Positions 2,874 through 47,322 are shown, numbered from the stretch's first letter. The stretch is DNA of 48,656 nt from a virus (IMGVR_UViG_2534681762_000009:1-48656); one strand, 5' to 3'. Notes: a model not told the origin generated them from the letters alone. Numbers and translations are program-made.

Positions 2874-3894
2874 ACACGCCCTTTGTCGTCAGGTATTCAG
2901 TAATGTATTTGTTCAGTGCTACGGGATCTTTGTGAATGTCGATCGGACGCTCACGGACAAGGCCAAAAATAGTTTGGCGGTCGTAGCGAAGGGCATCAGG
3001 CTGTTTGCGCATTGATGCCGAGATACGCTTCCAGTCTTCGCGGTCGTTGTCGATAACTTCATTTTTTGCCCAGCGATGGATGCTGCCGTCAATGTTTCCG
3101 GCATCCACATCACCAGGCCAGAGAGCGTAGGCCAGTTCGTCATCCAGTGTTTTCCATGTCTGCTTGTATTCGCGATGAATGGCAGCAATGACCGGGCTGA
3201 TTTTTCCTGTTGAATTTTCAGTGTACTGTTGATTGGCTCTGGCGCGGGCGAGATCAACAACAGACGTGTATTTTCCGGTTTCCTTGCGTTCACCTTCGCG
3301 ACGTTTTTTCCAGATGCGCATCTCTGCCTGAATTTCGGGCCATTTAGCACCAGGAATACATTTATGCTTAACCCACCCAATGGCGTGCAACTTAAGCTCC
3401 GGATACATGGCGTTAACTTCTGGCATTTTCATCAACGCTTCAACGATATGTCCGTCGAATGTTGCCATGTCTTCCTGCAACAATTCCTGTGCGCTAATAA
3501 CCATATCAACGGTGATGTTTTCACATGTGTCGAACTTAACCATGACAGCGTTCTGTACTTCAGGGGCCAGCTTGTCAAAAGTGACGTTCATCGGATCGGA
3601 TTCAGTCTCAACCGGGACAAAAGAAGCAGACTCCTCATCCCAGCGGTTTTCCTGCATATATTCAGCATCCCATGAATCGAGGGCAGGGCGGGGTATGCCA
3701 GGTTTATCCTCGCAGACAATAAATTTATAAGCGCAGTCCTGAGCAGCCGGATAATGTTCCAGGAATTGCCAGTGAAATTTTGCTCGAGCACGGCGTTCGT
3801 CGCCAGCTTCAATGGCTGTGGCTACAGCCACAGCGCCTTCTTCCCTTGTTGCCAGTTCGTCAGGAATAGCGGCGCAAATAAAGACTTTACTCAT
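2863..3894 (-). CDS. Conserved prophage protein of unknown function (early-left operon)
   Basis: Long ORF (frame open to 3930); start chosen at Met with GAGG RBS 10 nt upstream (MSKVFICAA…); overlaps downstream exonuclease gene start by 11 nt suggesting translational coupling. Confidence 0.6.
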
Positions 3895-4532: not shown

Positions 4533-4590
4533 AAAAAGGGCGGCAGAGCAGTCACGGAGTAAAACTGATACCGCCAAACGTCACCAGAAA
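4533..4590 (-). ncRNA. dicF: DicF-like small regulatory RNA (ftsZ-targeting antisense sRNA family)
   Basis: Minus-strand sequence reads TTTCTGGTGACGTTTGGCGGTATCAGTTTTACTCCGTGACTGCTCTGCCGCCCTTTTT, matching the DicF sRNA as I recall it, ending in a GC stem plus U-tract; located between ydfC-like ORF and dicB-like ORF in a ~380-nt non-coding stretch. Confidence 0.6.
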
Positions 4591-9675: not shown

Positions 9676-10016
9676 CGACTTTTACCAGAGAGCAGTTAAT
9701 AGCTCACGCAGAGGAGACTATTGAAGCACAGAGACTGTGCATACCGGGCACAATCGACCATGACATCATCCGCACATATAAGATGGATATTGCTGTTCTG
9801 GAAATCGCACTGGTATCGCTGGCAGCAGAGCCAGCCGGTAAATTGCATGAATACAAACCAGTGGGATATCAGCGTCTGGTCGATGAGTTAACCATGCTGG
9901 TAAAGCAGTTAACCTGGCAACTGAGGAAAGCGAAGCCAGACTGCAAATTACCGGATAAGGCGATGAGTTATCTGGAGCGGAACGGACTGATAAGCGTGGA
10001 GGATATTTTACGATGA
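9672..10016 (+). CDS. Small hypothetical protein (114 aa)
   Basis: [15 protein letters not shown]… shares N-terminal pattern and IAL(A/V)SL(E/A)AEP segment with preceding ORF; ATGA-coupled to neighbours. Confidence 0.55.
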
Positions 10017-10096
10017 CCTGGCCTGAAGCATTAACAACGGTAGGAATTGCGATGGCGGTGGCGCTGGTGGTGTATTCGATTTGCCGCTGGGGATAA
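10013..10096 (+). CDS. Possible 27-aa membrane micro-protein
   Basis: [27 protein letters not shown]; ATGA-coupled to upstream gene; speculative. Confidence 0.3.
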
Positions 10097-10307
10097 AAAC
10101 GGTTTGCGGGAAAAGGAGAGTTAAGTAGAATTGCAGCGGGTGCTTGAGGCTATCTGTCTCAGGCATGAACACCAAAAGGCAGATAGAGAAAAGCCCCAGT
10201 TAACATTACGCGTCCGGCAAGACGCTTAACATTAATCTGAGGCCATATCTATGCTCTACACACGTAGGTTAGCCTCTTACGTGCCGAAAGGCAAGGAGAA
10301 GCAGGCT

Positions 10308-10463
10308 ATGAAGCAGCAAAAGGCGATGCTAATCGCCCTGATCGTCATCTGTTTAACCGTCATTGTGACGGCACTGGTAACGAGGAAAGACCTCTGCGAG
10401 GTACGAATCCGAACCGGCCAGACGGAGGTCGCTGTCTTCACAGCTTACGAACCTGAGGAGTAA
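10308..10463 (+). CDS. hok: Hok/Gef family type I toxin (small membrane toxin)
   Basis: MKQQKAMLIALIVICLTVIVTALVTRKDLCEVRIRTGQTEVAVFTAYEPEE: canonical Hok family sequence (TM helix + conserved C-terminal CEV/R…EVAAF-like motif); in-frame upstream extension from 10251 resembles a mok-like leader ORF. Confidence 0.8.
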   Translation: MKQQKAMLIALIVICLTVIVTALVTRKDLCEVRIRTGQTEVAVFTAYEPEE

Positions 10464-10532
10464 GAGACCTGGCGGGGGAGAAATCCCTCGCCACCTCTGA
10501 TGTGTCAGGCATCCTCAACGCACCCGCACTTA

Positions 10533-10560
10533 ACCCGCTTCGGCGGGTTTTGTTCTTTTT
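10533..10560 (+). terminator. Rho-independent terminator (copy 1 of AACCCGCTTCGGCGGGTTTTGTT)
   Basis: CCCGC-TTCG-GCGGG stem-loop followed by TTTTGTTCTTTTT. Confidence 0.6.
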
Positions 10561-10707: not shown

Positions 10708-11067
10708 ATGGCACTCACTGAATTCGGTAAGGCCGTTAGAAAAGCGAGGATCGATACTGACAGTACTCTTCTGACTATGTCTCAAGAACTGGGCACTACG
10801 CCAGCGTTTCTTAGCGGTTTAGAAACTGGTAGCAAAAAAATACCTCTGAAGTGGGTTAAGAAGATTGATTCTTACTTCAAGGCCAAAGGTGTAGAAATTG
10901 AAGGGTTACAGGAGTTAGCGGCAGTTGCGAATGACTCAGTTCCAGTAAACGGTTTGTCTCAGCAACAGAAAATGCTTGTAGCGGGATTCGCTAAGTCGCA
11001 GTTTACGCCGGAACAGCTAAAGAGTTTTGCAGATTTATTGCAAAAGATTAATAACAATGAGGGGTAA
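10708..11067 (+). CDS. XRE-family HTH transcriptional regulator
   Basis: 119-aa ORF, GAGGA RBS; N-terminal HTH (LTMSQELGTTPAFLSGLETG); directly upstream of and nearly abutting a metallopeptidase gene. Confidence 0.8.
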   Translation: MALTEFGKAVRKARIDTDSTLLTMSQELGTTPAFLSGLETGSKKIPLKWVKKIDSYFKAKGVEIEGLQELAAVANDSVPVNGLSQQQKMLVAGFAKSQFTPEQLKSFADLLQKINNNEG

Positions 11068-11069
11068 TT

Positions 11070-11546
11070 ATGTATCAAATGAGAGGTAACAGGGTGTCAC
11101 CGATGCAAGAAGAAGAAATAGCCTACAGAGCTATAAACTTCTGTAATGCTATTGGTCTTACAGCCTCAAAGCGCAAAAGAAAGCGTTATGATATGTTCTT
11201 TGAAAGCCTGTCAATTTATGGGGTTACTCTTGACGTCAGGACCGACAAAGAGTGGGAGGCTCTGACGTATGATCTAACTATCGGACATTGTGACCCCGCT
11301 TCTCTAACAATTACGGTTCCCAATAAAATATATGTGAATGCTTGCCTTGGGGAAGAGCATGCACTTGCTGTTATCTTCCACGAGCTAGGTCATTTGCTTC
11401 TTGGACACAAAGCAGTTTTACACTTTTCAGTTAAAGAACCTACTCGTATTGAGGATGCAGAATGGCAGGCAGATACATTTGCGGATATCGTACTGGAAAC
11501 AATTGGCGTGAGAACACAACAGATGTCGTTCGATTTTTATATGTAA
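11070..11546 (+). CDS. ImmA/IrrE-family (COG2856-like) zinc metallopeptidase
   Basis: 158-aa ORF with HEXXH motif (IFHELGHLLLGH); 2-nt gap from XRE gene; GAGGGG RBS. Confidence 0.8.
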   Translation: MYQMRGNRVSPMQEEEIAYRAINFCNAIGLTASKRKRKRYDMFFESLSIYGVTLDVRTDKEWEALTYDLTIGHCDPASLTITVPNKIYVNACLGEEHALAVIFHELGHLLLGHKAVLHFSVKEPTRIEDAEWQADTFADIVLETIGVRTQQMSFDFYM

Positions 11547-11879: not shown

Positions 11880-11908
11880 AACCCGCTTCGGCGGGTTTTG
11901 TTTTTTCT
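11880..11908 (+). terminator. Rho-independent terminator (copy 2 of AACCCGCTTCGGCGGGTTTTGTT)
   Basis: Same 23-bp stem-loop as at 10533, followed by TTTTTTC. Confidence 0.6.
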
Positions 11909-16183: not shown

Positions 16184-16259
16184 GGCCCTTTAGCTCAGTG
16201 GTGAGAGCGAGCGACTCATAATCGCCAGGTCGCTGGTTCAAATCCAGCAAGGGCCACCA
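16184..16259 (+). tRNA. tRNA with CAU anticodon (Ile2/lysidine-type, ileZ-like; could also be read as Met)
   Basis: Folded by hand: acceptor GGCCCTT/AAGGGCC, D-arm GCTC…GAGC, anticodon loop CTCATAA, T-arm GGTCGCTGGTTCAAATCCAGC, 3' ACCA; close to E. coli ileX-type sequence. Confidence 0.8.
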
Positions 16260-16268
16260 TATCACATA

Positions 16269-16345
16269 CCACCATTAGCTCATCGGGATAGAGCGCCAGC
16301 CTTCGAAGCTGGTTGCGCGGGGTTCGAGTTCTCGATGGCGGTCCA
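16269..16345 (+). tRNA. tRNA-Arg (anticodon UCG)
   Basis: Folded by hand: acceptor CCACCAT/ATGGCGG (one A-C mismatch), D-arm GCTC…GAGC, anticodon stem CCAGC/GCTGG with loop CTTCGAA, T-loop TTCGAGT, 3' TCCA. Confidence 0.7.
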
Positions 16346-16405: not shown

Positions 16406-16769
16406 TGGTTGCACTCCTGTTGTTTCTGGTGGTGATGGTGGACTTCAGCAGCCGGATAATGTCGGTGCTGTCTGATGGTGTTTTGGTGGCGGGTGTGTGG
16501 TTGTTGCTTTCCCGTTGCTGAAAAAGAAAGCATCAGGCGATTAGCAGGGTATCAGTTACACGTTGAAATTTTTAAATACCTCACAATTCCACAGCTTGAT
16601 GATTGTCTGGCTGCCGGAGAATTTGTTAAAAATTACATCGCATGGTGAATCCCCCTGTGCGGAGGGGTAATCAGCGAGTAGGTATATGGGATAATCGCGG
16701 ATTCAGGTGCTGGTACTGAATTCACCGGGAGGCACCCGGCACCATGCAATGGCACATAGCGCCACTCTC

Positions 16770-16800
16770 CAGCCCCTCTCCGGAGGGGCTGTTTATATTG
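16770..16800 (+). terminator. Rho-independent terminator
   Basis: CAGCCCCTC-tccg-GAGGGGCTG followed by TTTATATTGATTTTG. Confidence 0.5.
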
Positions 16801-46738: not shown

Positions 46739-47322
46739 TGGCATTCAGAATGAGTGAACAAGCACGGACCATAAAAATTTATAATCTGCTGGCCGGAACT
46801 AATGAATTTATTGGTGAAGGTGACGCATATATTCCGCCTCATACAGGTCTGCCAGCAAACAGTACCGATATTGCACCGCCAGATATTCCGGCTGGCTTTG
46901 TGGCTGTTTTCAACAGTGATGAGGCATCGTGGCATCTCGTTGAAGATCATCGGGGTAAAACGGTTTATGACGTAGCTTCCGGCGACGCGTTATTTATTTC
47001 TGAACTCGGCTTATTACCGGAAAATGTTACCTGGTTATCGCCGGAAGGGGAGTTTCAGAAGTGGAACGGCACAACCTGGGTGAAAGATGCAGAAGCAGAA
47101 AAACTGTTCCGGATCCGGGAGGCGGAAGAAACAAAAAACAACCTGATGCAGGTAGCCAGTGAGCATATTGCGCCGCTTCAGGATGCTGCAGATCTGGAAA
47201 TTGCAACGGAGGAAGAAACCTCATTGCTGGAAGCCTGGAAAAAGTATCGGGTGTTGCTGAACCGTGTTGATACATCAACTGCACCTGATATTGAGTGGCC
47301 TACGAACCCTGTCAGGGAGTAA
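46738..47322 (+). CDS. tfa: Tail fibre assembly protein (Tfa-like)
   Basis: 194-aa ORF ATGA-like coupled to stf end; typical Tfa N-terminus ([17 protein letters not shown]…). Confidence 0.85.

Follow-up and report, generated by a model that had tools for sequence, protein, structure and literature searches.

Since the 1980s the hok/sok family has counted as a textbook system. In Escherichia coli genomes that carry the locus considered here in identical form, RefSeq annotates a 51-aa gene, ‘hokD’, and nothing more. This raises the question of whether that gene lies in its prophage by itself or within a complete toxin–antitoxin module, and what such a module might do there. Here we address the question for a 48,656-nt stretch of viral DNA (IMGVR_UViG_2534681762_000009:1-48656; hereafter the window, with positions counted from its first letter). 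Positions 10126–10559 almost certainly hold a complete, intact hok/mok/sok type I toxin–antitoxin module of the hokD/hokW subgroup. The discovery value is small: public genomes already carry annotations of this subgroup, experiments have characterized its closest relative, and prophages are known to be enriched in hok. The gain lies in annotation, with base-level positions for mok, the predicted Sok, the two promoters and the elements of the RNA switch.

Identity, distribution and setting of the locus

The locus is an already known and very common element. Many E. coli chromosomes carry its 501-base region with 100% identity, inside prophage, and 3,828 of 5,426 complete E. coli genomes have a near-full-length copy (at least 80% of this region); related places number two per genome in the median and up to nine. 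The host is a lambdoid, Qin-like E. coli prophage, and the locus occupies its early-right (nin-like) region: in an identical genome the prophage adjoins potC, and the locus is flanked by replication and nin-like genes on one side and by DUF968, RusA and antiterminator genes on the other. An earlier reading of this DNA, made without database searches (hereafter the sequence-only reading), had proposed Rfam as a check. Rfam family RF01794, which is named ‘sok’ yet models the leader of the hok strand, indeed matches at 10138–10313 (+) over model positions 1–157 of 157 (117.1 bits, gathering score 59; E = 4e-26).

The toxin gene and its leader reading frame

The coding part of the locus comprises two reading frames with a common stop codon, each preceded by a Shine–Dalgarno (SD) sequence:

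10239–10242 (+), mok SD GAGG, inside CUGAGGC at 10237–10243 and 8 nt upstream of the ATG at 10251
10251–10463 (+), mok, 70 codons, in frame with hok
10293–10299 (+), hok SD AAGGAGA, read from the sequence and overlapping the –35 box of sok on the opposite strand
10308–10463 (+), hok toxin gene, 51 aa, MKQQKAMLIALIVICLTVIVTALVTRKDLCEVRIRTGQTEVAVFTAYEPEE, identified by Pfam and by sequence identity

The 51-aa ORF was originally described as a canonical Hok/Gef toxin, and this is borne out by its match to Pfam HOK_GEF (PF01848) over profile positions 1–42 of 42 (82.9 bits, cut-off 22; E = 1.2e-23). Other Escherichia and Shigella genomes have an ORF annotated hokD whose product is the same in sequence, and RefSeq names the protein HokD. 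It scores 48.5 against the NCBIfam Hok subfamily model, below the cut-off of 73, a shortfall explained by the derivation of that model from R1-type sequences. HokD of this same protein sequence is toxic when expressed, and served as the toxic control in a survey of Hok homologues (bioRxiv 10.1101/2025.08.07.668861); HokW is toxic when expressed as well (PMC8621323). Toxicity would likewise be expected of the exact copy in the window in its native context. The CAAGG at the hok SD is invariant in the alignment of homologous loci. As a separate observation, the codon for Tyr47 of Hok (TAC) and the G that follows it (10446–10449) form the UACG editing motif of TadA, intact in the window copy; about 6% of the K-12 hokD mRNA is reported to be edited at this motif, changing Tyr to Cys (PMC12214031).

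The upstream in-frame extension from 10251 that the sequence-only reading had noticed is present, with a 70-aa product and the same stop codon as hok. Its interpretation as mok agrees with the layout annotated for mokW and mokC, but the in-frame arrangement itself is not a hallmark of the family, as the frame differs among close relatives: mok is in frame with hok in the window, in 933W, in most hokC-type loci and in all Photorhabdus and Pantoea loci, and in the +1 frame in R1, in hokB and in a 90%-identical P1-like plasmid copy. Such variation fits mok acting via its translation, not its product. By analogy with R1, translation of mok and hok would be coupled here; the R1 counterpart of the mok-SD GAGG is a site of loss-of-function mutations (PMC9841398).

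Elements and folding of the hok mRNA

The following elements could be placed along the predicted hok transcript:

10104–10109 (+), candidate hok –35 box TTGCGG, weak, with a 16-nt spacer to the –10 box
10126–10131 (+), –10 box TAGAAT of the putative hok promoter, conserved
10138–10149 (+), predicted 5′ end of the hok mRNA and tac element, GGGUGCUUGAGG, at position 1 of the RF01794 model; pairs with fbi in the full-length minimum free energy (MFE) fold
10150–10186 (+), leader hairpin, CUAUCUGUCU / AGGCAGAUAG, with a 10-bp stem of 10150–10159 and 10177–10186
10156–10166 (+), segment that pairs with tac in the metastable hairpin at the 5′ end of the growing transcript, from the MFE of the first 30–50 nt
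10191–10199 (+), ucb or anti-SD, AAGCCCCAG, bound to the mok SD region while the mRNA is closed and to tac once it is open
10272–10276 (+), dcb, GCCUC, which binds the mok SD once the mRNA is open and accessible to Sok, from the MFE of the 140-nt leader
10471–10492 (+), 3′ UTR stem-loop, GGCGGGGGAGAAATCCCTCGCC (GGCGGGGGAG-AAAU-CCCUCGCC), with conserved helices 18 and 19
10513–10525 (+), fbi, CCTCAACGCACCC / CCUCAACGCACCC, complementary to tac with one bulged C and paired in the MFE
10532–10559 (+), intrinsic terminator of the hok mRNA, AACCCGC-UUCG-GCGGGUU and a U run, with its hairpin at 10532–10549; also found in K-12 hokD

The T, A and final T of the hok –10 box are invariant in 39 homologous loci and stand at a fixed distance from the conserved 5′ end of the mRNA, a pattern that points to promoter activity. 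A generic promoter scan of the locus detected neither the hok nor the sok promoter, the former because its –35 box is poor and the latter because its –10 box matches TATAAT at only three of six positions. The one match that the scan did return, TTAACA-18-TATGCT at 10226–10255 (+), is no more than chance would give (1 found, 0.7 expected) and was not used.

The full-length transcript (10138–10556) folds with an MFE of –173.2 kcal/mol (z = –7.65 relative to shuffles), with tac closed on fbi and ucb paired with the CUGAGGC that holds the mok SD. Taken as a duplex, tac/fbi has an energy of –21.5 kcal/mol, a value reached by one of 200 shuffled UTRs. At full length the closed form is favoured by ∼13 kcal/mol over a forced tac/ucb pairing (–173.2 versus –160.3), whereas after removal of fbi and the terminator the open form comes within ∼2 kcal/mol of the MFE (–143.6 versus –145.7). 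Plain MFE folding of this truncated mRNA gave no spontaneous switch, the metastable/closed leader staying ahead of tac/ucb by those ∼2 kcal/mol, and constrained folds were therefore compared instead. For the nascent leader, the MFE at 30–50 nt is the small hairpin that holds tac, and at 60–140 nt it is tac/ucb together with SD/dcb; the tac/ucb stem also belongs to the consensus structure of RF01794. These computed states match those described for the R1 hok mRNA, from which the role of the metastable hairpin is known and in which, as here, dcb adjoins the sok –10 box (PMC9841398). The P1-like plasmid copy matches 10136–10525 only, that is, from the predicted 5′ end of the mRNA to the end of fbi.

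Two further parts of the sequence-only reading bear on these structures. The leader repeat TATCTG…CAGATA that it had picked out lies at 10151–10156 and 10180–10185 and is part of the 10-bp stem. It had also described stacked hairpins at the 3′ end as consistent with fbi elements; the hairpins exist (10471–10492 and 10532–10549), but fbi itself is the segment at 10513–10525, between the 3′ UTR stem-loop and the terminator, and not the GGCGGGGGAG...CCCTCGCC stem-loop. The latter has a counterpart in R1 that keeps the processed mRNA stable at its 3′ end, and a protective role of this kind is probable here; in R1, function is lost when mutations destabilize the final stem-loop of the truncated mRNA (PMC9841398). 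In its layout of GC hairpin, spacer and terminator the hok 3′ UTR (10472–10553) also resembles isrK, a Salmonella Hfq-binding sRNA (Rfam), at 27 bits against a gathering score of 50; we regard this and the other sub-threshold Rfam matches in the 3′ UTR as probably generic hairpin-plus-terminator resemblance.

The predicted Sok antisense RNA and its promoter

On the minus strand, opposite the leader, we place two features:

10294–10266 (–), putative sok promoter, with –35 box TTGCCT (10294–10289), 17-nt spacer and –10 box TAACCT (10271–10266)
10259 to ∼10189 (–), predicted Sok antisense RNA, ∼71 nt, its ends transferred from the annotation of sokW (933W) and sokC (K-12)

A minus-strand Sok over the leader had been anticipated from the outset, with promoter prediction on that strand as the proposed test. 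It was not the generic scan but homology to sokW that located the promoter, in a stretch identical to sokW; annotated Sok begins 8 nt inside mok in both 933W and K-12, which puts the predicted start at 10259 here. The window and 933W are identical over 10265–10310, and the promoter is thus the same as one that has been tested: primer YO-421 of Takada et al. alters TAGGTTA, the complement of TAACCTA, in the ‘pro-less’ sokW mutant, which loses antitoxin activity (PMC8621323). In that system sokW supplied in trans partly restored protection after the –10 mutation, hokW and sokW RNAs were both seen by Northern blot, and sokW counteracts HokW (PMC8621323). The counterpart in R1 is TTGCGC-17-TATCCT.

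Predicted Sok begins with a 5′ tail that is the complement of the mok AUG and SD and continues as a long hairpin ending GGGGCUUUU; its fold (–35.5 kcal/mol, z = –5.9) is terminator-like. In the R1 literature a YUNR (U-turn) motif is held to be important. The predicted target loop CUCUACACA contains no YUNR motif, and 933W has CUGA at that place. Among 12 close relatives, 10243–10267 is the most variable non-loop stretch of the transcript (mean pairwise difference 0.32–0.38) between almost invariant flanks (0–0.01), and within it fall the start of mok, the 5′ tail of Sok and the target loop. Such hypervariability, combined with up to nine related loci per genome, makes diversifying selection possible, a point to which we return below.

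Conservation and covariation of the RNA structures

Pairing was assessed by counting paired cells in 39 non-identical homologous loci from Escherichia, Kluyvera, Pseudocitrobacter, Photorhabdus, Pantoea and plasmids. An alignment of eight Hok proteins was too diverse to seed the genome search, for which three close sequences were used. The first R1-type plasmid locus (L004), with IS150 in its leader, was dropped and L009 used in its place; L005 and L008, with foreign sequence instead of a leader, were also replaced, the replacement loci being L009 and L006. Mutually exclusive pairings are conserved throughout:

Whole closed structure, 83.8% paired, slid controls 38–44%, 52 pairs changed on both sides (39 loci)
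tac/fbi helix, 89.9% paired, U-A changed to C-G in 10 loci (39 loci)
Anti-SD helix (ucb/mok SD, helix 5), 86.9% paired, six pairs changed on both sides (39 loci)
tac/ucb stem, 98.9% paired, almost invariant (39 loci)
SD/dcb helix, 97.9% paired (39 loci)
5′ metastable hairpin, 94.9% paired, slid controls 33–45% (39 loci)
Leader hairpin 10150–10186 (helix 2), 93.3% paired, three pairs changed on both sides
3′ UTR stem-loop, helices 18 and 19, 92–94% paired, three pairs changed on both sides

A search that does not depend on the alignment gave the same placement of fbi: the best partner of the first 13 nt lies 45–56 nt past the hok stop codon in all 38 undisrupted 3′ UTRs, in duplexes of –18 to –26 kcal/mol, the exception being K-12 hokC, with IS186 directly behind it. 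Neither a chance ORF nor a decayed pseudo-locus is compatible with a structure that is intact and covaries, or with the database identities.

Four loci show what remains when the 5′ part is altered. L018 and L023 are K-12-type relE-hokD fusions that have lost the leader, tac is mutated in L017 (ATGACTGCATGTGG), and the upstream sequence of L057 is unrelated; all four retain fbi even without its partner, and their Hok is the same or similar.

Comparison with characterized hok/sok systems

The closest named relative is hokW/mokW/sokW of the Stx2 phages 933W and Sp5 (VT2-Sakai) (GenBank AF125520; PMC8621323), at 92–93% identity (92% over 10013–10535). It too lies in a lambdoid prophage, and it shares with the window the order of the elements, the in-frame 70-codon mok, the 71-nt Sok with an extended hairpin, an identical sok promoter, hok SD and hok start region, and the same 27-aa ORF just upstream. 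The two differ in four C-terminal residues of Hok (TAYEPEE in the window, VDYESEK in HokW) and in eight substitutions clustered in the Sok 5′ tail/target region (10244–10264). The homology stops within the terminator, so that the 3′ flank is another one, and the 933W locus sits at the far right end of its prophage whereas that of the window is in the nin-like early-right region.

The hokD (relF) gene of the K-12 Qin prophage is 97% identical in nucleotide sequence over 10294–10560, which covers the hok SD, coding sequence, 3′ stem-loop, fbi and terminator, and like the window copy it lies upstream of a DUF968 (ydfU-like) gene. In contrast to the window copy, it is without promoter, tac, ucb, mok start, dcb and sok, and has relBE fused upstream in their place. 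The window copy thereby shows the form of the truncated K-12 hokD before it lost its leader.

The reference system, hok/sok (parB) of plasmid R1, has tac, metastable hairpin, ucb, mok SD and dcb in the same order, a sok promoter overlapping the hok SD, and the 3′ stem-loop, fbi and terminator, and the same mutually exclusive pairings are possible in it (PMC9841398). Its Hok, however, is only 39% identical, its mok is in the +1 frame, its Sok/anti-SD hairpin is without the extra insert of ∼16–18 nt found in the window, and it is plasmid-borne and acts in post-segregational killing. Chromosomal hokC (gef)/mokC/sokC of E. coli is closer in its Hok (82% identical), in its in-frame mok of 69 codons and in a Sok that starts 8 nt inside mok; it differs in that the K-12 copy has lost the fbi pairing, with IS186 just downstream, and the hairpin insert is absent.

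Proposed mechanism

The mechanism established for plasmid R1 can be applied to the window by homology and by the conservation of structure. A weak promoter (–10 box TAGAAT) would give a hok mRNA of ∼420 nt starting near 10138, with tac held in the small 5′ hairpin during transcription. Once the 3′ end is made, tac (10138–10149) would pair with fbi (10513–10525) and close the molecule, with ucb (10191–10199) over the mok SD keeping out both ribosomes and Sok. Slow trimming at the 3′ end would then take off fbi and allow refolding to tac/ucb and SD/dcb, exposing the mok start region. As long as Sok is present, this unstable antisense RNA of ∼71 nt, transcribed from the minus-strand TTGCCT-17-TAACCT promoter, would pair with the exposed region and block translation of mok and, through coupling, of hok, after which the duplex would be degraded. 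If Sok synthesis stops, the stable processed mRNA would be translated, and the 51-aa Hok would enter the inner membrane and kill or arrest the cell. Slow 3′ processing, duplex cleavage by RNase III and differential RNA stability are known for R1 (PMC9841398); in hokW the dependence on RNase III is only partial, and smaller hokW RNA species have been seen (PMC8621323).

Biological role of the module

What the prophage gains from the module is most likely an aid to killing and lysis on induction, as judged by analogy with hokW in Sp5. There, mitomycin C leads to a RecA-dependent loss of sokW RNA and to production of HokW in the inner membrane, and hokW/sokW brings growth arrest ∼40 minutes earlier and releases about twice as many phages on induction, leaving normal growth unaffected (PMC8621323).

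The setting of the window locus suggests how induction could act on Sok. The locus lies in sense orientation downstream of the early-right genes, and scanning detected no strong terminator from ∼5,400 up to that of hok. Transcription reading through after induction would run into the sok promoter and could turn Sok off by transcriptional interference, which would explain the so far unexplained RecA-dependent loss of sokW RNA in Sp5. We tentatively combine this with the variability of the Sok 5′ tail described above: prophage copies of hok/sok may be under diversifying selection against Sok/target cross-reaction, and read-through on induction may silence Sok. Both holding together is speculative and, in our estimation, rather improbable, perhaps a one-in-several prospect. 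If true, the first part offers a testable explanation for the coexistence of several hok/sok copies per genome, and the second a testable explanation of how prophage induction triggers Hok.

Stabilization of the prophage or exclusion of other phages is also possible, and the same module might serve mainly as an abortive-infection defence against superinfecting phages or as a prophage-stabilizing element rather than as a lysis aid. We consider this doubtful, if still a serious contender. R1 hok/sok on a high-copy plasmid cut the plating efficiency and plaque size of T4 (cited in PMC8621323), hok genes are four-fold enriched in prophages (bioRxiv 10.1101/2025.08.07.668861), and the neighbours of the window locus, a helix-turn-helix protein and an ImmA/IrrE peptidase, resemble accessory cargo, with relBE elsewhere in the prophage. 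The sole prophage experiment on a close relative, however, is that on Sp5, with faster killing, doubled phage release and unaffected normal growth (PMC8621323), and the survey that reported the prophage enrichment saw no enrichment of hok beside defence systems (bioRxiv 10.1101/2025.08.07.668861). The sequence itself favours neither role.

It is very improbable that the locus is anatomically complete yet functionally silent, a decaying copy like K-12 hokA, hokC, hokD and hokE that is kept by riding in a prophage. Most K-12 chromosomal hok loci are reported to be inactivated (bioRxiv 10.1101/2025.08.07.668861; PMC12214031), and chromosomal hokA, hokB and hokC gave no post-segregational killing in earlier tests (bioRxiv 10.1101/2025.08.07.668861), so that intact anatomy is no guarantee of R1-like behaviour; the hok and sok promoters, moreover, match consensus weakly. 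Against this, the window locus has no insertion sequence, frameshift or truncation, and all its regulatory elements are intact and pair as in active loci. Given that K-12 hokD keeps 10294–10560 only, the window copy is the complete version and not the decayed one. In addition, the 93%-identical hokW/sokW is experimentally active (PMC8621323), and near-full-length copies persist in the 3,828 genomes noted above.

Other features of the prophage

A 23-nt sequence of the hok terminator, AACCCGCTTCGGCGGGTTTTGTT, is present twice in the window, at 10532–10554 and at 11880–11902. The 1.3 kb between the copies encode a helix-turn-helix protein (10708–11067) and an ImmA/IrrE-type M78 peptidase (11070–11546). 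In a Shigella flexneri prophage (L019) this segment is absent and a single terminator copy joins both flanks; the segment is either a cargo insertion or, where it is absent, has been removed by deletion between the repeats.

On the other side of the locus, a 27-aa hydrophobic ORF (10013–10096) shares an ATGA overlap with the stop codon of the ORF before it, and the homology with 933W begins exactly at its ATG. By tblastn it occurs in 88 phage records at 63–96% identity, mostly unannotated or hypothetical; protein-family profile searches (Pfam, NCBIfam) returned no family match for it.

Further RNA and toxin–antitoxin features lie elsewhere in the window. A relB/relE-type pair (∼2914–3385, –) is found near the immunity region, ∼7 kb from hok and on the opposite strand. 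A full-length Rfam match to DicF (4538–4589, –; 76.7 bits) lies ∼3 kb from dicB, inside and antisense to a gene that RefSeq calls a YdaT-family toxin in an identical genome. Other Rfam matches are to STnc100 (16610–16800, +; 132 bits), IS009 (47081–47279, +; 226 bits) and two tRNAs downstream of the antiterminator region (16184–16342, +), where RefSeq lists three (Ile, Arg, Arg).
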